Positions 780 to 50,437 are shown, numbered from the stretch's first letter. The stretch is DNA of 64,000 bases from Promethearchaeota archaeon (GCA_014728035.1 WJMJ01000148.1:32001-96000); one strand, 5' to 3'. Notes: generated by a model from the letters alone, not told the origin. Made by a program: numbers and translations.

Positions 780-3700
780 AAACTCGTCTTCTTGAAATAA
801 TTATTATCATCACAATCAATCCAGATCCAGTGCTGATAACGACTATAATAATAACAAGAGTACTACCAGGCAGAATGACTGTTATTTCCGTTGTATCAGA
901 AGTTGATGTTGGTGGAGTTGTCACATCTTCTACTGTAACACTAACAGAATCAGATACGGAATTACCTCCCTGGTCAGTTATTGTTATTTCATATACCCAT
1001 ACTCCTACTTCTGGTTCTTCTATCAGATAGACAATGGAATTGTTATTAGAATACCAGTTACCTGATTCTATTACTATTCCTTCCTTTGTAATTTCATAGA
1101 TTCCAGAAGAAAGATCAGACACAAACCATGTTATGTTTGACTCGGCGTTTTCCACTGAAATCGTGAAATCGTCAGGGTTAGAAATTACGGGTGGAGTTGT
1201 ATCGACTACAGTTACGGTGATTGATACCGACTGAACGTTTCCTTCCGAGTCACTTACAGAAATAGTTACATCATGAATACCCAATGTAAGTACACTGCGA
1301 TTTTGGAGTACGCCATCTTGATCAATTCTAAATAGAATATTATCCACATCCCATGAATCGATACCCGAGAGGTCTGTCGCATTGAGGTCGTATAGGAAAC
1401 TGTAACCCAACTCTACAGTCTGATTGGTGGGTGTAGAACCCCAATCTGGTGCGGTAGTGTCGACTACAATGATAGAAATTGACACTGTACAATAATTATC
1501 ACTTGAATCATAAGCCCTAACCTCAAGACTGTACATTCCAATATCCAAGGCTCCATCAGAATTGAGAAGTCCATCAGCATCAATAGAAAAGTGTGTTGTA
1601 TCGTTAATCCAATACGAGTCAATACCATCTAGATCGGTTGCTTCAGAATTGAAAGTATATTCAGTTCCTAGCTCTACATTTTCATCGGTTGGTTCAAATA
1701 TCCACTCGGGAGAAGTAGTATCAATGACCGTGAGTTCAAAGCTGACAGTAGCATCATTACCATAGACATCGTAAGCTATGACTGATATGTAGTATGTGTC
1801 AATATCTAGAATTCGAGCATTAGTGATGACACCTGACGCATCAATTTGGAAGTTGATATGGTCACCAATAACATAGTAGTCAACACCGCTTAAATCACTA
1901 GCATTGAGGTCATATCTAAAATCTGAACCCAATTCTAAGATTATGTTTTCGGGAGTTTCAAGCCAGTCTGGACCAGTAGTATCTTCACAAATAATTGAGA
2001 TTATTTCACTAGTTATGTGATTATAGATATCTGCGACTTCAATAATTATCCTGTACTCTCCAACATCAAGTGTTGTAGCATTAGTTAGGTGTCCATTCAC
2101 AATTGAGAAGAAGTTACTATTGTTAGTAGACCAGCTAGCAATATCATCGACATCTTGGGCTTCAAAGTATCCGGAAAGTTCCTGCCCAAATTCTACAACT
2201 TGGTCAGTAGGAGCTACCACCCAAGTAGGACCAACACCTTCGCTGATAGTAACTGTGACAGATGTGTACATCTCATTACCAACAGTATCATTGACATAGA
2301 TAAGAAGATAGTATGTGTCAATATCTAGCTGAGTTGCATTGGTTAAAGTCCCATCCACAATTTGAAAATGAAGTGTATCATTAACAAAGTAAGTATCGAT
2401 ACCAGATGGATCAACAGCTGAATATTCCATTAATAGTGGAATTCCATATTCGCTTGAGAATGAGTACGGTTCATCTATCCAAGTTGGTGCTTCAGTATCT
2501 ACAACTGATATGACAATGTCTTTGGATAAGGTATTACCATAGGTATCGTTTACAGATATCTCAAGATAGTAAACACCTACAGATAGGTATGAAGCATTTT
2601 CTAGGTCACCATTAGAGGAGATTTGGAAATTGATGGTATCGTTCAGCCACCATGAATCTAATCCAGAAAGGTCTGTGGCTCCATACATTTCAGAGAGGGT
2701 GATATTCAACTCCGCTGTGAAATCATCGGGCATTGCAGTCCAAGTCGGAGGAGCTGTGTCTATAACTTCAATGGTGATGATAGAACTACAATATTGATTG
2801 TAAGGATCATATGCACGAATCTCAAGACCGTAAGATCCAACATCAAGAAAATCTAAACTCTCGATAAATCCTGAATTATCAATAGAGAACAAGGAACTAT
2901 CATTGACCCAGTAAGCATCAATTCCACTAAGGTCAGAAGCTACAGAATAAAATGAATAAACCTCTCCGTATTGTAGAATCTCATCAATTGGTTCAACACT
3001 CCAGGTAGGTGTTGTAGTATCATTAACCTCTATTGTGATAATAGCTACACAATAATGACCGTAGGAATCATAAGCTCGAATCTCTAATCCATAAGATTCC
3101 ACATCAAGAGTATTCTTACTTTCAATCAATCCATCGTTAGTTATGGTGAATAAAGTAGTATCATTTATCCAATAAGAATTGATACCACTCAGGTCATATG
3201 CTTCAGAATTGAAAGAGTAAATCTCTCCGTATTCTATTGTATCATTATTTGGTTCAACAGTCCATGTAGGATCTGTCGTATCTATAATCTCTATTGTGAT
3301 AGTAGCTAAACAATACTGTTCATAGGGATCATAACCTCGAATCTCCAGTCCGTAACTACCGACCTCTAAAACAGTATTGCTATCAATAAGACCTGAGCTA
3401 TAGTTTGAGAAATGCGTAGTGTCATTTATCCAATAAGACACTATTCCACTAAGGTCGAATGCTTCGGAATCAAATGAATAAATTTCCCCATATTCAATGA
3501 TTTCATCTACTGGTTCATTTATCCAGATTGGAATAATACTGTCAGAAACTGTAATTGTAAACGAAGTTGACAGCATATTTCCATAAGCATCATAACATTG
3601 TAGTTCAAGATGATATAAACCGACTTCCAAAATATCCAAGTTCGTTATGATACCTTCAGAATCTACATTGAAACTATCTGTATCGTTTATCCAGTATCCG

Positions 3701-6700
3701 ATAATGTCACTCAAATCAGTAGAATTGGCATTAAATGTATATGATTCACCATACTCAATTGACACATCTTGTGGTTCATCGACCCAATTCGGACTTGTGG
3801 TATCTACCACTGTAACGAATACCGTATCAGAGTTCTGATTATAGTATTCATCTATCAATACAATAGTAAAATTGTAGACACCGGGTGAGAGACCATCAGT
3901 ACTGATAGTAAGAATTCCATTACTCCACAAGTAGTCAAAAGACAGATTATCATCTGTTCCATTTCCTACGACATCGTAGAGATTTGGATGTACATCATTC
4001 AAGCTCCAAATGATTGTATTTCCAGTCGCACCAAATTCGTATCCTCCATCGGTAGGACTTGAGATAGCTGGAACGGTATAATCTCGGACAGTTACATAGA
4101 TGGTATAGACATTACTATATCCCCCTTCAGTTGTAACTTCTATTGTATATGTATGATTATCCAATGTATAATCAAGACCAGATTCAATACGATAATTAAA
4201 AGAACCAGAATTGCTGCCCGAATCTACAACACCAGAAGACCATGACGAAGTGATACTCCATGTAGTAATGTAGTATCCTGATATTATGAAATCAAAGTCA
4301 GGAGGTGTCGGGTCGTTAACTGGATCCCATTGAATCCATAGAGGATTACTACCTAGATTTCCTTCATATAGTAAATCAGTAGGACTAAAGTCGGATAATA
4401 CATCACTAATTGTAGGAACCGTACTAACATGTACAGTTAAACTTGGATCGATATATCTTCTTGTTATGTGATATGTGGATTCTAAACTAGAGTTTACAAA
4501 GAATACTTTGTCTCCAGGTTCAGTGAATATTCTTGTAATTATGAAGTGAGTACCATTCCAAGTTGCGGTTTCATCATCCATCACAATCGTATCCTCTGCT
4601 CCAAAGCTATGACCATCAATCACGGAACGTGCTTTCAGCCAAATGGAAAACTCCTGATTTACTAGGGGATACGAATCCGAACCAAAATCATAGATTTCAA
4701 TACCATCATAAATTGCAGTCAAGCTTTTATCATTTTGATTCACAAGAGTGATTCCATATGGGCCACCTGAGTATGAAATTGAATGGATAACTCTCGTAGC
4801 AGGGTTAACACAGTTAAGTTGGAAATACCACAATCCATCCCCCTGATGAATTAAAATATTAGTCGGACGGTCATCAAGCAGAACAGTGACTGTGCCAGAA
4901 GTCACACTTGTATTGTCATATTCGTATCTCAAATTATGATAGAATTCAATTAAACTATTGTAGTTTGCTCTATTATCTGGTTCGTCAGAGTACTGGTCAT
5001 ATACAATGATTCGATCCCAAATCACAGTAGTGCTCTGAGAATTTTGATTGACCACATATAACCCATGTTCTGGTTCTAATGCTGTAACAGTATTATAGGT
5101 ATATCCTACAACAGTGCTTTGTGAAGCTGATATATACCAATATCCTGATGAAAAAATTGCACTGTATCCATTTATTGAAACAGATCCAGAAGTTAGAAGA
5201 GTATTATCCAATTCGTACCTAAGTTCTACTCCAATATCTACGGAGCTCCCAACATTTATTCTATTATCACTAACAATGTAGTCTGTTACAATCAATTGGT
5301 CCCAAGTAATTTGGATAACTGCACCATTTGTATCAAAGGAACTCAAACCATGTTCTCCGTAGAAATAACCACTAACACCGAGCATTCCACTAAATGGCTC
5401 ACTAAGAGCAGGGTAAACATCATACCAAATCCCATCACCAAGATAAGATGCATGAGAGCTCGCACTCATCGATACAATACCATCAGTTACATTAGTATTG
5501 TCATACTGATATTGAAGCCATGCATAGATGGCGACAGCCTCACCCACATTGAAGTAATTATCTGATTTATTTGTGTATATTGATTTAACAACTACTCTAT
5601 CAGTAATATAACTTTTTGAGTGAACATCATGTAGAAGATTGACATCTTCAAAATCAGCTCCTTCAGCTACAACTATGAAGTCATAATCATATAATCCATA
5701 CTCATTATCAGCTGATACAGCAACTGTAAAACTTCCATCAATATCTGAATATGATGAATCAGCCCAAGGGTAAGTACTTACTGGAAGTGACATCACAAAT
5801 ATATCAATCTCATCTGCAGATGGATGCAGGTTATTAGCGCTATTATAGTATTTTACGACTCCTAATGCATCAAGTATCTTAGAAGCTTCTCCTCGGTCTG
5901 GTGTACCTTCGCCATCGTCTAATCCGAACGAGCTCAAATCAAGACGTGTTTCAATTTCCCAATTAACTTCGTAATAATCACTATCTAAACCTCCATCGGA
6001 GTCGTATGCAACTAATCTCAAATCGATAGTATTAATGTCGGGATGATTCCAATTGATCATAATTTTAAATGTCAAGTCCAGATTGTTTCCTGATTTAGAA
6101 TATCCACATGAGCCAGAATCTAAATCAATGTAATTTGAAGAATCGCTATATTCACTGAATGTATTTGAGTCCTCATTATATCGAACAGACCAATAATTAG
6201 ATGTTCTATCATTACTGTAGCACGTTAGATATACAGAGGTGAACTGAGAATATCCTTCAGCATTTGTATGCGAAGTAGATATGGAATAGTATTTGTTTCG
6301 TGCATATAGATTATCACCGTCATCCATATTCGAACATGTAGGTGATTTGTCATTCACAGGATCAGAATTTGTAAGTTTGATATACACTCTAGAAATATAC
6401 CATGTATCTCTAATTGTGTCTTGAACCTGAGAGTAATCACGAATTTCCATATAACAGGTTGGTCCTGTTAGATAATCATGAATATCCACAGTGAAATCAT
6501 CAGTTATATGATAAGCAACAATGTTATCTGGAGTAGTATCTCCTGCCTCGAATCGAAACGTAAGGTATTCAGAACCAGGAGAGTCACTATGAAAGTCAAC
6601 ACAAAGCTCTTCTATATCATATGTGTCGTAATCAATATTTGTAAATCGATAGGTTTTTTCAAACCCAGAACCCCAATCTGTTTCGATTCCATAAATTCGC

Positions 6701-11759: not shown

Positions 11760-11801
11760 GAAAAAGTGCTAAATCTACCAGGTGATATCGGAAGATTGAC
11801 C

Positions 11802-11984
11802 GTTCATTGTTTCATAATCAAATTCATACATATGAGCGTTGACATCCCAGGTAACGCTAATGGGTGAAACTTTGTCCTCATCAGGAACTGGTATCTATTA
11901 ACCACAGTATCAATTTATATCAACCAGTATAAGCTCCTAACACAACTTGTCCCAAAATGTCCAGGTAGCCACATCAGGATAGGA
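11802..11984 (-). mobile_element. decayed copy D of the 183-bp dispersed element
   Basis: Same right end (ATGAAC-GGT; ACC at 11799-11801). TATAAGCTCCTAACACAACTTGTCCCAAAATGTCCAGGT matches copy B at 32/39 positions in the same register. Left end has decayed. Confidence 0.7.
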
Positions 11985-32344: not shown

Positions 32345-32905
32345 ATGACTTCAACTTATTTCCAACGTCTAGAAAGGTTGAAAAATAGTATCGAAAAGGA
32401 AATGGTGCCTCTTCAAGAACTTCCTGATGAATTCGCGTTTTTCTCTTTAGAAGCTAGAAATCTAGATGGAGAATCTAGAAATAAAGCTCTTGGTATCATA
32501 TCTGAGATAATTGACATATCTATTGAAAAGACCAGACTAGATATTGCAGGATTGATAGGTGTTGTAGGTGGACATATTGTCGAATTAGATCAAACTGATC
32601 CAATGATAATCTTTCCTCAAACATACAATCTTTTTATGAACGTACTTAATATCGCAAAACCAATACTCAAGATTTACAAATATAATCCAAATCAAGACCC
32701 ACATGAACTCAACAAGCAATATCCTGAAAGATTCTTTGCATGGTTGGTCCTAGATGATGCGTGGCGTCCAATCTATGCGATTGTTTCAAATTCTGAAAAA
32801 GCGAGAAATATGTTATCTAATAACTCACAATTTCTAAAATTTCTTACACCTTATTTAGAATATCATGAAGGATGCAAAAAGATTCATCGAGTATTAAAAC
32901 AATAA
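32345..32905 (+). CDS. uncharacterised helical protein, paralogue 1 of a three-member family
   Basis: MTSTYFQ...DIAGLIGVVG...AKPIL..Y..NPN...FAW.VLD.AW...YHEGCKKIHRVLKQ shared with 33820 and 34842. Confidence 0.8.
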   Translation: MTSTYFQRLERLKNSIEKEMVPLQELPDEFAFFSLEARNLDGESRNKALGIISEIIDISIEKTRLDIAGLIGVVGGHIVELDQTDPMIIFPQTYNLFMNVLNIAKPILKIYKYNPNQDPHELNKQYPERFFAWLVLDDAWRPIYAIVSNSEKARNMLSNNSQFLKFLTPYLEYHEGCKKIHRVLKQ

Positions 32906-33819: not shown

Positions 33820-34836
33820 ATGACTTCAGCGTATTTTCAACATCTAGAAGAATTACAAAAGCAAATAGACAAGCAAAATGTGACTTCAGAACAGTTAGCA
33901 TCCACTTTCCTATATTTGGTATCTAGCGCAAAAAATCTTGATGTTGAATCTCAAAACGAAGCTGTTGTTAAAATATCCGAGTTAGTAGAATTTGCAAGTG
34001 TGAAAGGAAGTCCTGAGCTAGGAGCTATGCTTGGGATAATTGGTGGAGCAATCATTGAACTCAAAAAAGCAAATCCAATTCTATTACTACCCCAAGTATA
34101 CACACTCATGATGAATATGCTTCATCATGCAAAACCCATTCTAGAAATCTACGCTAATAATCCAAATCCGGACAAACGAGAGTTAAAGCAGAGTAACCCA
34201 CAATCCTTCTATGCTTGGGAGGTTCTTGATAAAGCATGGTTACCTCTCACAACAATCTTTACACACAGTCAACAAGCAAGAGAGAAAATACGAAAGGATA
34301 AGAAATTCCTCGAATTTCTGGAGCCATATGTAAGTCATCACGAAGGATGCATGTGGATATACAGAGCTCTTCATATTTATGATGGAGAGATAATGGTCTT
34401 TCATCCTGAACAGATGTTAGGATATCGAATTATGGTTGAAGATATTGACCACCCATTTACATTATCTAACTTGCTGACTGAGAAGCTAGTAGGAGACCCC
34501 ACTCAAGGATGCATTCCCAAGAAACCAAAGAGCTCCGATATCGCTCAATTCTGGATTTATAATTGGGAGGTTTTGAAAGAGATGCCAGAAGATTTCAAAG
34601 ACCTTTCTGTAATGAAATATCTTAAGAGTCCAGCTTATATGGGTAGTGAAAGCTGGATGTTTGATCTTTCGTTCTATAATGGTATTCCAGTTCTTGTTCT
34701 GATTGACACGGACTTCAAATTTGGTTTTAATATTCCTGGTTCATTTCCCGAGCTCTCATCAAAAATTACAATACTCGAAACTCTTGATAGAACATCCGTA
34801 CAAGATTGGTTATCGAAATTACGAAATACGGAGTAG
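33820..34836 (+). CDS. uncharacterised protein, long paralogue 2 with an extra C-terminal domain
   Basis: N-terminal ~185 aa align with 32345-32905; about 150 additional residues. Confidence 0.8.
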   Translation: MTSAYFQHLEELQKQIDKQNVTSEQLASTFLYLVSSAKNLDVESQNEAVVKISELVEFASVKGSPELGAMLGIIGGAIIELKKANPILLLPQVYTLMMNMLHHAKPILEIYANNPNPDKRELKQSNPQSFYAWEVLDKAWLPLTTIFTHSQQAREKIRKDKKFLEFLEPYVSHHEGCMWIYRALHIYDGEIMVFHPEQMLGYRIMVEDIDHPFTLSNLLTEKLVGDPTQGCIPKKPKSSDIAQFWIYNWEVLKEMPEDFKDLSVMKYLKSPAYMGSESWMFDLSFYNGIPVLVLIDTDFKFGFNIPGSFPELSSKITILETLDRTSVQDWLSKLRNTE

Positions 34837-34841
34837 GTTTT

Positions 34842-35600
34842 GTGCAAGATAGAATAAAAGAAATGTACTTTCAATTCCTTATTGGACTTAAAGAACATGT
34901 AATAGCTGATAATGACCAGATACCAAATCTAGCAGACGTGCTTTCGTTCCTGCATACTATTGGTCCCAGATTAGAAATGGAACTTCAGGAAAAAGCGTTG
35001 ACGGACATTGCTGAAATCATGCAAATATCAGTTAGGATGGGACGTCTCGATATAGCTGGTTTAATCGGTGTTGTAGGTAGTGCGATAGTGAAACAAGAAG
35101 AAGTCTACTCAGTTCAGTATGTTAACCAAGTTTTTAATCTATTTATGAACTGCCTTAATATAGCTAAACCAATACTCCGTGAATACGAACAGAATCCAAA
35201 TCTTAATCTGAATATTTTGAGAAAGAAAGAACCTGAAAGACATTTTGCATGGGATGTGCTAGATGACATATGGCGAGCAATGTATGCGATACTCGTACAT
35301 AGTGAAAAAACAAGAGTGGTTCTTAAAGATAATCAAAAATTGCGTGATTTTCTTGGACTATATGTTGGATATCATGAAGGGTTGAAGTCAGTTACTGAAA
35401 ACTTAGACATATGTGGACACGATACGATAGGAGTTTATATGGGCTGATACTGAATGAATGTCTGGTTACCAGACACACATTCCCTGACCAGGACCGAGCC
35501 AGTTCCAGTACCGTTTCTGGACGAACAACGCTCGGGTGTCCAAGTTTGTCCAACTAATAATGAACGGTGTAAGCAAATTTATGATATACTACAGAATTAG
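34842..35600 (+). pseudogene. paralogue 3, interrupted near its 3' end by the 183-bp element (reads into the element and stops at 35447)
   Basis: Deleting 35383-35568 gives CAT GAA GGG TGT AAG CAA ATT TAT GAT ATA CTA CAG AAT TAG = HEGCKQIYDILQN*, matching HEGCKKIHRVLKQ* of paralogue 1 in length and motif. The altered protein may still be functional. Confidence 0.75.
35383..35565 (+). mobile_element. copy A of the 183-bp non-autonomous element, flanked by GGT direct repeats
   Basis: GGT at 35380-35382 and 35566-35568; ungapped homology to 47514-47696 in inverted orientation; removal restores the host ORF. Confidence 0.88.
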
Positions 35601-35723
35601 AACTTTTCACTAGTGTAAGTTGATTGCATTGATATGAACTTTTTATTGGTCAAGAATCATTGACTAGCTGGTCAAGGTTGATAGAATAATATTCTTTCTA
35701 CCCACTTACTAATGTGAATAAAA

Positions 35724-36188
35724 ATGACGGATGAAGTATTTGATGCAATATCGCACCCAATAAGAATTAGACTCTTAAAAGCACTTACTGGAAAACCTAT
35801 TGGATTTGCAGATTTAAAACGTCAATTAAAGATAGATAGTAGTGGCCAGCTTGATTTTCATCTTAAGAAGATGCAACCTCTAATCGATATCACAGATCAT
35901 GGACTTTACACTTTGAATAGTCAAGGCTATGCAGCGCTAACTGCAGTGGGAGTAGTCTCCAAACACGGTTGGCAAAGAAGAGCACTTATTCTGAATATAG
36001 TAGTATATATCATTCTGAATCTTTTCATGCTCAGTCTTGTTATTCAAGGGTTACATCTTATTTTGTACCTTATTGTTTTCTTAGCTCTAACAGCCTGGAT
36101 TCTGTTCTATGGCTATTGGAATCTTGTCAAAAGGAGAGTACAACTAAAGGATGAATCCACAATGAAATATAGAGTTAAGGAGGACTAA
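35724..36188 (+). CDS. ArsR-like winged-HTH regulator with two C-terminal TM helices
   Basis: FDAISHPIRIRLLKAL...FADLKRQL.IDSSGQLDFHLKKM...YTLN..G, then two hydrophobic helices; first gene of the ABC operon. Confidence 0.85.
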   Translation: MTDEVFDAISHPIRIRLLKALTGKPIGFADLKRQLKIDSSGQLDFHLKKMQPLIDITDHGLYTLNSQGYAALTAVGVVSKHGWQRRALILNIVVYIILNLFMLSLVIQGLHLILYLIVFLALTAWILFYGYWNLVKRRVQLKDESTMKYRVKED

Positions 36189-47025: not shown

Positions 47026-47234
47026 AAGTGACTCTTGATGTAAATACAACATATGATAGTATCAACAACAGTCAAAGCAGCATAAACTCCGATAACTGCA
47101 TCTGTGCTGTGAAATGAGGAATGTACCTAAAACAAAGTTTGTATCCTGTTTAGGTATTGAGAATGAAATTTAGTTTCGTAATGTTGGGATACTATGAACA
47201 TGGTGTGATTCAATATACATGAAATATTGCTACT

Positions 47235-47416
47235 GTTCTATGCTCAATGGACGATATTTGATATCCGAACATTGTCCGTCCAGAAAGGTACTAGAGCTGG
47301 CTTGATTCTGATTGGAGATTCTGTGTCTTTTAGCCAAATCTTCATCCTGTTTGAGTCTCTATAGGATCCATTCATATCTTGTCCCAAAATATCCAGGTTT
47401 TCGACAGCTGTTTACA
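47235..47416 (-). mobile_element. diverged copy C (182 bp) of the element, flanked by AGT direct repeats
   Basis: ACT at 47232-47234 and 47417-47419 on the plus strand; collinear with copy B except a 1-bp deletion. Confidence 0.8.
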
Positions 47417-47513
47417 ACTCATCAGATGGAGCTATACTATAGTGATTGTGGTTAAAAAACTTGAATTACACTCTCAATCAACATAATTAGTATCCAAAAA
47501 AAGAATAGAAACC

Positions 47514-47696
47514 GTTCATTTTTAGTTGGACAAACTTAGACACCCGAGCTTTGTTCGTCCAGAAACGGTACTGGAACTGGCTCGGTCCTGGTCAGGGAAT
47601 GTGTGTCTTTAGACCAAATCTCTATTCCAGATCACTCCATATAAACTCCTATCAGATCTTGTCCAACAATGTCCAAGTTTTCAGTAGCTGATTGCT
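47514..47696 (-). mobile_element. copy B of the 183-bp element, inserted in a terminator, flanked by GGT direct repeats
   Basis: ACC at 47511-47513 and 47697-47699 on the plus strand; removal restores GAGACCCC-TTCG-GGGGTTTC-TATTCTTTTTTT. Confidence 0.88.
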
Positions 47697-47716
47697 ACCC
47701 CCGAAGGGGTCTCAAT

Positions 47717-50437
47717 CTATTTGTTTCGTTTTAGTTTACCAGTATAATACAGAATAAACACTACGATTGTTATCGCACCGATTCCACCAATAGCTAGCCC
47801 AATTACGAGCAGAGTCGAATCATCGGGTGGTGGTAAAACGGTCACTATGACAGAATCAGAAATACTGTTTCCTGAAGTATCATAGAGAGTTAGCTTGACA
47901 ATGTAAGTTCCTGGTTCAAAATCTGTTACATCAAATCGGATAGATTGACCGATCCAATCACCACTTGCTGACACAGTATCGTTTACTGTTATTGTATATC
48001 TAGACGGAAGTAGATCATCACCCTGCCATGTAATATTCATATCTTCAGTTCCTTGAATAAATTCTAAATTCTCTGGTGAGTTGATTGTCGGATTTGTGCT
48101 ATCCCCAACAATTACCCAAGTGGTTGCAGATATGCCATTTCCACTCTGGTCTTCAAGATACAAGGTCACATTGTAAATGCCAATAGGTCTATCAAATGGA
48201 ATGAGTGTTCCAATATTTCCCGCAAATACTCCATTCACGACTTGTGAACCATTAACGAATACGAGGAATAAACCAGGTGTATCCCATGTGTCATCAGGTG
48301 TCATATTGAAACTGACACTTGGGTTCAATGCACCATACTCTATGTACAGATTATCAAGGGATTCAATTGAAGGAGCTAAGGTATCTACAACTGTAACAAT
48401 TACAGTATCAAAATCATAGTTCATATCAGCATCCCAGACGACTACAGTGAAGTTATGTTCACCTAAGGACAGTCCATCAACAGAGTAATTGATCCAGTCA
48501 GAATAACTGAAGGTGTTGATGACAGTATCATCTAGATACATCTCTGCATCAACTGGATTATCCTCATTAACGCTCCAATTACAGAAATGCCCAGATGTTC
48601 CAACTTCATAACTAAAATCTAAAGGTTCGCTTAGAAGAGGGCTAATTGGATCCGTAACATCAATCCAAACTGTATCAGTGACTGTATGTCCATACGTATC
48701 GTTTATCCAAATAGTCAAGTTATGTGGACCGGGATAGAAATCTACAGACTCTGAGATATTTGTAGTTGAAGTCCATTCTCCACTAGCAATCTCAATCTCA
48801 TTATCATAGAGAAGGTAACTATCTGGATGCTCATCAGTAACGTTCCATTGATAATTGTGAGTGAATTGATATTGAACTGTTTCATTCGTGGGGCCTGCAA
48901 TTATAGTGGGTGGTTCATAGTCAACATCGTTCACTGTTACCAAGACGGTATCTGAAGCGGTATTGTTGTAGAGGTCTTTGAAGACCACTGTAAAGTTCTT
49001 TACTCCCGGTTCTATCGAGTAAGCTTCAATCTCGAAGATATATTCATTCATCATATGACCCGTATCATAGATAGCATAATCAACATATAGAGTATAATTC
49101 ACCGGGAATAATTCATCAATGACCCAATGAATAATTCGATCAGTTTCATCTTCATCCATGGAAAAGTCAGATGGCTGATTCGGAATAGGTGCAGCAACTT
49201 CCCCTGGAAAAGAAGATGCAAAATTATCAACTGCCCCAGAGGGTCCAGGAATTGCATAGGGTTCTACTACAGCATTACTCCATTGGTTTCCCAAAGCAGA
49301 GAAGTCCCATACTGAAATGTCTCCACCTGTTCCCCCATTGTCATATCCATTCTCTACATCATTGAACAGTAGATGATTGCTGTAGATTCTATTTGAACTT
49401 GATATTGGGCCGTTGTATATTCCATGATCATTAAGGTATACTTTGTTTGTGTGAATTAGAGTTGAATTGGTGTTATCCAGTGAAATTCCATATCCCTCAC
49501 AACTATGAACATAGTTCCAAGTCACTATACATACTTCACTTTCAAATACATGGATACCATTATCTTCCGAATTGAATACGTTGTTATAGGTAACATTGAC
49601 GTGTAATCCTTCGGTAACGTAAATCCCTTGCATGTACACGTTGGATACATTGTTACTCAAAATCAATGAATCAGTTGAAGTACTACATCGTATCCCATAA
49701 CCACCACTGCCTTCAATTCTATTATTAGAAATCGTACAATTTGGACTTTTGATGTAGATGCCTCCCGAAGAGGTGTCACGGATGATGTTATCTGTAATTG
49801 TAATATGATTAGAGGTTAACCCAGATTCGTAGATTCCGTAAAGGGCATTCTCAATATTGTTATCATGGAATATACAATTCGTGCTAGAAACAAGAAACAT
49901 ACCGTAAGATGAATCTGAAAATCGGTTTATGGATACATTGACCTCATTGCATGATTGCAGATACACACCGCTACTACTAGAGGTGATTTCATTATCCACT
50001 ATAACTGTTTTATTTGAATCAATCAATTCTACAGCCCATTGGGTAACTTCAAAAACAGATCCCTCTATATGACCATTGGTTGAATTCCGTACCTCCAGTC
50101 CATCTCCTAGAGTAACAAAATCACAATCAACAATTTTCCAGTATGCTGATTGATTCACGATCTTTATACAAGGACCTCCACTATGAACAAAGTCCAAGCC
50201 TTCAATGGTATAGGGAGCTCCTTCTGTTCCGGACCCTGTAAATCCATAATCAGTAAAATTGGCTTCGTATTCGATTAACCAATATGGCGTTATAGGGCCA
50301 GCAGATAATTCTACAATTTCCTTAGTAAGAATTCCATCCTGTTCTAAAGTAGAAATAAGGGGCGTCGAATTCCCACATATGGAAGTAACTAGAATAGTGG
50401 TGAACATAACCACTAGCACTTTCTCTAGGTGACGCAT
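47717..50437 (-). CDS. surface protein with right-handed beta-helix (NosD/CASH) and Ig-like stalk, paralogue 1
   Basis: GFTGSGTEGAPYTIEG cap, repeated I.NN.I....GI motifs, GNQWS, Ig repeats, TM plus KLKRNK. Confidence 0.88.
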   Translation of the reverse strand: MRHLEKVLVVMFTTILVTSICGNSTPLISTLEQDGILTKEIVELSAGPITPYWLIEYEANFTDYGFTGSGTEGAPYTIEGLDFVHSGGPCIKIVNQSAYWKIVDCDFVTLGDGLEVRNSTNGHIEGSVFEVTQWAVELIDSNKTVIVDNEITSSSSGVYLQSCNEVNVSINRFSDSSYGMFLVSSTNCIFHDNNIENALYGIYESGLTSNHITITDNIIRDTSSGGIYIKSPNCTISNNRIEGSGGYGIRCSTSTDSLILSNNVSNVYMQGIYVTEGLHVNVTYNNVFNSEDNGIHVFESEVCIVTWNYVHSCEGYGISLDNTNSTLIHTNKVYLNDHGIYNGPISSSNRIYSNHLLFNDVENGYDNGGTGGDISVWDFSALGNQWSNAVVEPYAIPGPSGAVDNFASSFPGEVAAPIPNQPSDFSMDEDETDRIIHWVIDELFPVNYTLYVDYAIYDTGHMMNEYIFEIEAYSIEPGVKNFTVVFKDLYNNTASDTVLVTVNDVDYEPPTIIAGPTNETVQYQFTHNYQWNVTDEHPDSYLLYDNEIEIASGEWTSTTNISESVDFYPGPHNLTIWINDTYGHTVTDTVWIDVTDPISPLLSEPLDFSYEVGTSGHFCNWSVNEDNPVDAEMYLDDTVINTFSYSDWINYSVDGLSLGEHNFTVVVWDADMNYDFDTVIVTVVDTLAPSIESLDNLYIEYGALNPSVSFNMTPDDTWDTPGLFLVFVNGSQVVNGVFAGNIGTLIPFDRPIGIYNVTLYLEDQSGNGISATTWVIVGDSTNPTINSPENLEFIQGTEDMNITWQGDDLLPSRYTITVNDTVSASGDWIGQSIRFDVTDFEPGTYIVKLTLYDTSGNSISDSVIVTVLPPPDDSTLLVIGLAIGGIGAITIVVFILYYTGKLKRNK

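Follow-up and report, generated by a model that had tools for sequence, protein, structure and literature searches.

A short repeat without an open reading frame (ORF) of its own sits in the 3' end of ORF 34806-35447, the third of three tandem paralogous genes in a 64,000-nt stretch of archaeal DNA (Promethearchaeota archaeon, GCA_014728035.1 WJMJ01000148.1:32001-96000; hereafter 'the window'). The window is part of contig C121 of a metagenome-assembled genome (MAG) of the Asgard group (Thorarchaeota; 4.33 Mb in 173 contigs), and the repeat, here termed copy A, spans 190 nt including its junctions; a stretch that an earlier note on this DNA had singled out as a candidate guide-RNA scaffold (35471-35590) is its right part. 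The element is probably a 186-bp non-autonomous mini-transposon of the IS607 family that carries the scaffold of a TnpB omega RNA, with the corresponding nuclease encoded elsewhere in the genome. It would retain a left end with two recombinase-binding repeats, a promoter, a scaffold of about 107 nt and a right end with two inverted repeats (Table 1).

The window holds a second intact copy (B) and two decayed ones. Pairwise alignment of copies A and B gives 162 identical positions of 190 without indels, and the uneven distribution of the differences that had been described earlier was reproduced, with 95 of 98 positions identical over 35471-35568 and 63 of 88 over element positions 5-92; a 30-nt core occurs twice in the window, where no occurrence is expected by chance. 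Both features ascribed to copy D (CCCA/TGGG in its stem and CGTT in its loop) were found, and its flank reads CAATCTTCCG. The other decayed copy has the orientation of copy B and follows it after only 91 nt; its left end has mutated to GAGT, and the arrangement looks like repeated insertion into one intergenic spot.

The GGG(T) left flank reported for the intact copies proved to be general: GGGT starts every copy in the genome, and is nearly invariant at the left junction in relatives, while the right end reads CGGT. GGT is found at both junctions in all copies of the genome, between flanks that are unrelated from copy to copy, and there are neither terminal inverted repeats nor a longer target duplication. 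For copy A, comparison with a paralogue identifies the first G (35379) as host sequence and places GGT at 35380-82 and 35566-68. Joining 35382 to 35569 in silico yields the host C-terminus ...YVGYHEGCKQIYDILQN / ...LRDFLGLYVGYHEGCKQIYDILQN (followed by a stop), which matches in register that of the tandem paralogue 32345-32905, ...YLEYHEGCKKIHRVLKQ / ...FLTPYLEYHEGCKKIHRVLKQ (likewise followed by a stop). Because excision restores a paralogue-like C-terminus in this manner, the empty site of copy A can be read as GAAG-GGT-GTAAG and the insert as 186 bp. The three paralogues (ORFs 32345-32905, 33820-34836 and 34806-35447) have ...YHEGC... near the C-terminus, and the third, shortened by copy A, now ends in the element-encoded residues GLKSVTENLDICGHDTIGVYMG before its stop codon. 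In the case of copy B, excision in silico rejoins a hairpin (GACCCC TTCG GGGGT) and a T-tract behind ORF 47717-50437, as read from the sequence. A DNA search for an empty site in the same-genus genome G001 gave other copies only, the flanks being too diverged.

Fold and covariation of the right end

Three stems (GACAC/GTGTC, CCGAGC/GCTCGG and TCCAG/CTGGA) had been proposed for the right end, together with complementarity between the loop TACCGTTT (35509-16) and the terminal GAACGGT, and all are present in copy A. Their conservation was assessed with a covariance model (R1) built from 27 gene-less right ends and containing three helices, P0, P2 and P3, which was used to align 74 matches (68 distinct) found in relatives as well as in the window. 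Among the 68 distinct homologues, 88.4% of paired cells were complementary, against 76.2% in shuffles, and 258 cells had changed on both sides, against 93 in shuffles; these values are to be read in the knowledge that the alignment was fitted to P0, P2 and P3 and favours those helices, with P1 and the pseudoknot lying outside the model. None of 500 shuffles reached the observed value on any of five measures, and controls in which the partner strand was slid along the alignment left only 32-42% of cells paired.

Together, P0, P2 and P3 contain 16 pairs with changes on both sides. Helix P0 occurs as CTGGTC/GACCAG, GAGGTC/GACCTC and GAGGGT/ACCCTC with its complementarity kept; P2 as CGGAGT/ACTCCG, AGGAGT/ACTCCT, CAGAGT/ACTCTG and CAAAGC/GCTTTG; and P3 as CCCAG/CTGGG, CTCAG/CTGAG and CCCAT/ATGGG. 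At the pseudoknot, a core of five base pairs (CCGTT/AACGG) is invariant and includes the GG of the proposed crossover, and the pairs at its edges vary compatibly (UG in 31 sequences, CG in 26, UA in 5 and GC in 4 at one edge; GU in 46, AU in 16 and GC in 3 at the other). Of the fold first put forward, the pairings of P2 and P3 stand and that of the pseudoknot is compatible with the variation at its edges; what had been overlooked is helix P0. The GACAC/GTGTC stem (P1) is complementary as claimed, with its status as an RNA helix remaining ambiguous, as it overlaps the recombinase-binding repeats; moreover, its 5' strand falls within the loop of P0, so that P1 would form a second pseudoknot. The scaffold would comprise P0, P2 and P3 and the pairing of the P3 loop with the last seven bases, over about 107 nt.

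Table 1. Position of the element's parts and of its copies, numbered from the first letter of the window.
Feature	Position	Strand	Remarks
Copy A, mini-transposon	35379-35568	+	Repeat pair; genome BLAST and model matches; in-silico excision restores host ORF C-terminus
GGGT, target site and predicted target-adjacent motif	35379-35382	+	Host G plus GGT holding the GG crossover core
Left-end tandem repeats TTAGACA / GTGGACA (TTGGACA type)	35403-35419	+	Likely binding sites of TnpA (serine recombinase), by homology
TTTATAT, archaeal TATA-like box, after purine-rich TAGGAG	35434-35440	+	Predicted start near 35460-35463
Helix P0	CTGGTT 35462-67 / GACCAG 35486-91	+	8/8 counted pairs changed on both sides
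P1	GACAC 35472-76 / GTGTC 35536-40	+	87.6% paired outside the model; one pair CG (38 sequences) to UA (10)
Helix P2	CCGAGC 35494-99 / GCTCGG 35530-35	+	6/6 pairs changed on both sides
Hairpin P3, loop TACCGTTT	TCCAG 35504-08 / CTGGA 35517-21	+	97.4% paired; 4/5 pairs changed on both sides; also at tnpB 3' ends
Pseudoknot	loop ACCGTTT 35510-16 / terminal GAACGGT 35562-68	+	93.5% paired outside the model
Right-end inverted repeats GTGTCCAAG and TTTGTCCAAC	35536-35554	+	Reverse complement of TTGGACA type; likely TnpA binding sites
Predicted guide of copy A, GTAAGCAAATTTATGATATA	35569-35588	+	Host DNA at right end; role from TnpB/IS607 model
Copy B	47511-47700	-	85% identity to copy A, gap-free alignment
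Predicted guide of copy B, TTCTATTC...	47491-47510	-	Flank of copy B right end
Decayed copy	47232-47419	-	BLAST 70% identity; model R1 60.5 bits
Copy D, decayed, right-end part	11799-11919	-	Model R1 41 bits, E 8e-7

No tRNA or tmRNA was found in the window. A 261-nt tandem repeat occupies positions 1595-3737 (three full units, with a 61-nt core that recurs six times at 60-77% identity) and is probably a repeated protein domain.

IS607 ends and the TnpB nuclease

Both ends of the repeat match those of IS607 elements that bear tnpA and tnpB, and for this reason the repeat is best read as an internal-deletion derivative of such an element. Left repeats of the TTGGACA type are also found at the left ends of tnpA-bearing elements on contigs C25 and C16 of this genome and in a related genome, G009, and the right-end repeats are kept in all copies and at tnpB-linked right ends. 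In the G009 lineage, the left repeats read CAGACA/CTAGACA and the right repeats TGTCTAG, so that both ends have changed in step. On C25, a truncated IS607 serine-recombinase gene (MerR helix-turn-helix and YARVSSHRQ; NF033518, E 1e-15) lies upstream of tnpB, and the left end in front of it aligns with that of the repeat (GGGGTTGCGGGCTGATACCAGAACTTTGGACAAAGTTGGACA versus GGGTAGCAATCAGCTACTGAAAACTTGGACATTGTTGGACA). On C16, an intact IS607 TnpA of 204 residues (167 bits against a cut-off of 110) is encoded next to a left end of the same kind. A complete parent element of 8.6 kb, running from GGGT to ...CAACGGT, is present in G009 (locus L123, G009:C18), and encodes TnpA (Resolvase and MerR domains), a protein of 1838 residues and a TnpB of 731 residues.

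The 1838-residue ORF between tnpA and tnpB (L123 4820-10336, minus strand) has no Pfam match; a comparable ORF of 1882 residues occurs in another relative (G094, L122). In the C16 locus (C16:29457-31889, L104), the intact tnpA is followed by a 482-residue ORF on the opposite strand, likewise without a Pfam match, and a 68-residue fragment at the contig end resembles the TnpB of C25 (66% identity); this locus is probably a second, larger parent element that was broken by assembly.

The earlier interpretation of the right end as a guide scaffold is retained, with the added point that the parent is an element of IS607, a serine-recombinase family, and not of IS200/IS605. An origin from IS200/IS605 (as in palindrome-associated transposable elements, PATEs) had been considered for the lack of inverted repeats and was dropped, as the upstream gene on C25 and C16 is an IS607 serine recombinase; the genome contains a single fragment of a Y1 transposase, at a contig end. 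Mobilisation of the gene-less copies in trans by TnpA is proposed, the indirect signs of it being at least 13 near-identical copies and the intact tnpA on C16.

Between the left end and P0 lies a sequence with the appearance of a promoter. A block rich in A and T (75-89% A+T) recurs 30 to 24 nt before P0, after a G-rich stretch, across 56 distinct gene-less copies that represent many genera. The block resembles a promoter composed of a transcription factor B recognition element (BRE) and a TATA box, situated about 26 nt before the first helix, which would start transcription at P0. Such spacing between box and start is that of archaeal promoters in general. In the left end of the G009 parent, the homologous position is occupied by TAGGTTATAG, some 20 nt ahead of the start codon of tnpA, and the box is therefore probably the old promoter of tnpA. 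A small gene (35724-36188, plus strand), whose start resembles an ArsR-like helix-turn-helix by eye, follows copy A at a distance of 155 nt, has the same orientation and could be reached by read-through from the outward promoter of that copy.

These observations bear upon a first alternative, in which the element is a plain mini-transposon, its right part is kept only as a double-stranded DNA site for the recombinase, no functional RNA is involved and the stems are inverted binding sites. Repeats of the TTGGACA type do stand in direct and inverted orientation at the two ends, and their joint change to CTAGACA/TGTCTAG in G009 is what would be expected of such sites; the GACAC of P1 and the GGACA after P3 resemble the recombinase repeat; and excision of a Clostridium IS607 element has been found to need no more than 40 bp of its left end and 60 bp of its right end (10.1101/2023.11.20.567912). 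Nonetheless, P0, P2 and P3 change to unrelated sequences yet stay complementary, a behaviour that a single DNA-binding protein does not explain, and all three are located outside the terminal 60 bp. When it is added that the P3 hairpin and the pairing of its loop with the terminus recur on tnpB 3' ends, and that a TATA-like box stands at a fixed distance before P0, this alternative appears improbable.

The reading of the right part as an omega-RNA scaffold draws support from the tnpB gene itself. The BLAST match on C25 lies directly behind a coding sequence ending ...FYCPHCGSELHADVNAARNIIDVYQSSTVAGRTA; the last 65 nt of the repeat and the 3' end of this TnpB-like gene are 83% identical, and the ORF ends inside P3. 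The encoded protein (P0001; 713 residues, L036:2576-4717, minus strand) is the product of the single full-length TnpB-like gene with these ends in the genome. It contains a Cas12f1-like TNB domain (PF07282, E 1e-15) and matches NCBIfam guided_TnpB over residues 445-699. Its RuvC motifs GADRG, FENL and HADVNAARNI (D/E/D) do not vary among the 10 homologues whose alignment extends through them, and the zinc-ribbon cysteines are kept in the same 10 except at single positions in L118 and L119. When solved structures were searched by sequence, only the tail formed by the zinc ribbon and RuvC-III matched Cas12f-type chains (E about 0.003).

Whether the motif also matches the 3' ends of tnpB genes, a check proposed in the earlier note, can be answered in the affirmative: R1 scores 63 bits (E 2e-10) at the 3' end of the C25 gene, and it also matches the 3' end of every one of the 21 homologous TnpB loci that were examined in relatives, or 22 of 22 with C25 included. 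Application of RNAalifold to 19 tnpB-linked 3' ends recovered P3, a GGAC/GTCC pairing and a small GCGG/CCGC hairpin, with no clear equivalents of P0 and P2. The P3 hairpin and the pseudoknot loop supply the codons for the last residues of TnpB (S-A/T-V-A-G-R-T; L036:2576-2620, minus strand, and homologues), and the conservation of this tail may reflect constraint on the RNA and not on the function of the protein.

Copy number, distribution and the proposed mechanism

Throughout the MAG, BLAST finds 49 pieces of the repeat, and R1 finds it at 38 places. About 14 of the BLAST pieces are full copies; contig ends hold about 14 left-end and about 15 right-end pieces. The contig-end pieces are 137-146 nt in length, overlap one another with no differences and align collinearly with the 190-nt copies; they are presumably further near-identical 190-nt copies at which the assembly broke, their length fitting an assembler k-mer effect. 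In total, this genome has about 35 copies. The possibility that they were the ends of full-length insertion sequences was rejected on the same grounds of identical overlap and collinearity. The repeat would account for assembly breaks at more than 25 contig ends in this MAG. On contig C99 (79960-79997, minus strand), the right flank of one copy (ccgagtttgttcagctagtaatgaacagta) is a decayed right-end remnant, which points to insertion of that copy beside an older one.

Beyond this genome, a model search of 86 genomes of the same Thorarchaeota family returned more than 780 matches, with copy numbers that range from 0 to more than 40 per genome. The motif was detected in 56 of the 86 and a homologue of P0001 in 45: both are found in 44 genomes, the motif alone in 12, the protein alone in one (a 62%-complete MAG) and neither in 29, a co-occurrence that is partly built in, as tnpB 3' ends themselves carry the motif. 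In a sample of the whole phylum, the motif was present in 17 of 26 genomes of its own family, and the model search gave no match in any of 124 genomes from 26 other families.

Several observations weigh against the assignment of the right part to a TnpB omega RNA. The single-sequence minimum-free-energy fold of copy A is no better than that of shuffled sequences (z = -0.46), so that the structural support is comparative and not thermodynamic. Since the invariant core of the pseudoknot includes the crossover GG, its conservation could in part be a requirement at the level of DNA; similarly, P1 and the GGAC/GTCC pairing make use of recombinase-binding repeats (GTGTC, and the GGACA after P3), and their covariation may be that of DNA sites changing together. 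No Rfam match was obtained for the whole window at gathering thresholds, or for 35300-35650 at E values up to 10, a result that does not exclude membership among the omega RNAs, which are too diverse. The tnpB-linked copies align confidently with the gene-less ones only at P3, the pseudoknot and the last 65 nt or so, and because equivalents of P0 and P2 have not been established within the tnpB coding sequence, what this TnpB binds may differ from the 5' half of the scaffold in the gene-less copies. Finally, the 12 genomes with the motif and without a detected P0001 homologue (G010, G017, G051, G055, G063, G067, G072, G074, G076, G078, G081 and G093; 1-14 model matches each) are MAGs of 74-93% completeness.

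The last two of these points are those that would be expected if the RNA were made and not used by TnpB, its P0/P2 half having diverged, with the copies being inert relics or serving their own spread only, and the difference in R1 scores (23-82 bits for tnpB-linked copies, against 77-131 bits for most gene-less ones) can be read in the same way. The parts that are conserved here, namely the pseudoknot and the neighbouring hairpin, are however the core of the scaffold in solved TnpB and Fanzor2 complexes, and P0 and P2 have been kept by compensatory changes in many genera, a pattern that speaks for selection at the RNA level. Recent activity is indicated by the near-identity of at least 13 copies in the MAG. 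On balance, such a disused RNA is considered unlikely.

A third alternative is a structured non-coding RNA of the cell, regulatory or otherwise, or a bridge RNA of the IS110 type, unrelated to TnpB in either case. It would accommodate the promoter-like box, the conserved fold, the many copies beside genes and the lack of a match to a known RNA family. It is very hard to reconcile with ends that are both homologous to IS607 ends and meet the host in a precise junction with a repeated GG core, or with a motif that is found on every tnpB 3' end examined, between unrelated flanks and in copy numbers that vary so widely between genomes; in addition, the ends belong to a serine-recombinase element and not to IS110. 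It is accordingly given very little weight.

The preferred reading remains that of a mini-transposon with an omega-RNA scaffold. The earlier proposal that each insertion could combine the scaffold with a new guide for a nuclease encoded elsewhere gains support from the matches at tnpB 3' ends, the covariation, the differing flanks and the fixed GGGT. The right flanks are all different among the 27 right ends extracted, and the fixed GGGT on the left is as expected for a target-adjacent motif (TAM). A TAM of GGGT is predicted on the grounds that, in Clostridium IS607, the TnpA target and the TnpB TAM coincide and share a GG core; the border between TAM and guide is uncertain by up to three bases, GGT being common to both junctions. 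Nowhere else in the assembly does GGGT stand beside a near-full match to any of the 20-nt flanks of the 27 copies, and a role at the element's own site (homing or retention) therefore fits better than the regulation of other loci. Two suggestive 14-nt guide matches, on C86 and C140, were put down to chance.

From these elements we infer a cycle of transcription, TnpB loading, cleavage and homing. TnpA, encoded elsewhere (the intact copy on C16), would move the element into G|GGT sites, with crossover at GG. Each copy would be transcribed outward across its right junction, producing the scaffold followed by about 20 nt of host-derived guide, and the 713-residue TnpB from C25 would load this RNA in trans. 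Precise excision of copy A by TnpA would leave the donor joint ...GAAGGGTGTAAG..., and TnpB would then cut the vacated site, which presents GGGT and a match to the guide, leading to repair from an occupied copy and thereby to retention of the element; the occupied site would be spared, since CGGT at the right end takes the place of the GGGT of the TAM. Cleavage of the vacated site by TnpB has been shown for IS605 and IS607 elements (PMC10055086; 10.1101/2023.11.20.567912).

A broader view can be offered tentatively, as one less likely than not to hold: that the mini-transposons are self-expressing guide-RNA genes driven by a tnpA-derived promoter, that the roughly 35 copies amount to a dispersed guide array with which one large TnpB polices all insertion sites in trans, and that a role of the RNA free of the nuclease may exist in some lineages, namely the 12 genomes in which the motif occurs alone.

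Should the 713-residue TnpB use these RNAs with a GGGT TAM, Asgard archaea, the nearest prokaryotic kin of eukaryotes, would possess an RNA-guided nuclease system that is split by nature. The genome also offers a natural example of an IS607 system with its nuclease, its transposase and its predicted guide RNAs at three separate places. Such a case bears on the separation of guide-RNA genes from their effectors, a step that is assumed for the origin of CRISPR arrays and of domesticated TnpBs. The more than 780 matches in Thorarchaeota would be assigned to a known principle instead of to a 'new non-coding RNA', and predictions follow for a clade of unusually large Asgard TnpBs: a scaffold of about 107 nt, a guide that begins right after ...AACGGT, a GGGT TAM and a transcription start located some 26 nt beyond the TATA box.

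Relation to known systems

A pseudoknot that involves the last bases of the scaffold had been cited in the earlier note as established for omega RNAs of TnpB and Fanzor alike; it is found in TnpB and Fanzor2, and is absent in Fanzor1 (PMC11832414). Standalone omega RNAs that act in trans are known (PMC10691335, citing Altae-Tran et al. 2021), and in Geobacillus stearothermophilus the PATE-like elements of IS200/IS605, which have no genes, 'often encode omega RNAs' (Meers et al. 2023, PMC10055086). The present element resembles both in being free of protein-coding sequence, in keeping its ends and a predicted scaffold, in a guide that would be taken from its flank and in a nuclease and a transposase that would be supplied in trans from other loci of the genome. 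It differs from the PATE-like elements, which belong to IS200/IS605 (a Y1 transposase and ends that form single-strand hairpins), by its IS607 character (a serine recombinase, a GG core and tandem repeats). It is also set apart by its Thorarchaeota host, by what appears to be its own promoter, situated about 26 nt ahead of the scaffold, and by the unusual size of the partner TnpB (about 710-735 residues).

Another related system is the IS607 IStron of Clostridium botulinum, where TGGG, with a GG core, serves both as the target of TnpA and as the TAM of TnpB (Zedaveinyte et al., 10.1101/2023.11.20.567912). The two have in common a serine recombinase, the GG core, a G-rich target and TAM (TGGG there, GGGT predicted here), an omega RNA (predicted here) at the right end with its guide in the flank, and short ends, which there are enough for excision; indeed, the laboratory 'mini-IS' made from the IStron has the same layout as the natural element described here. 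In contrast to the IStron, no group I intron is present, the scaffold sequences are unrelated, and either the TAM ends in T or the guide starts with T.

Among Asgard archaea, the aCas1-associated TnpB groups Cas1H-Asgard-1 and -2 (Altae-Tran et al. 2023, PMC10691335) are, as here, encoded in multi-gene transposons. A variable stretch downstream of their tnpB genes, after a conserved T, has been considered a possible guide, and this fits the ...AACGGT and variable flank of the present element. The downstream GTTCACTCA motif of those groups was not seen in flanks read by eye, with no dedicated search run, and a likeness to Cas1 could not be shown for the 1838-residue ORF of the G009 parent. The principle at work, as represented by standalone omega RNAs and PATEs, is thus already published, and the element is a well-documented new example of it and not a new principle. 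What is particular to it is the combination of an IS607 type, an Asgard host, an apparent promoter of its own, a compact scaffold for which Rfam has no model, a TnpB of about 710-735 residues and abundance within one archaeal family.

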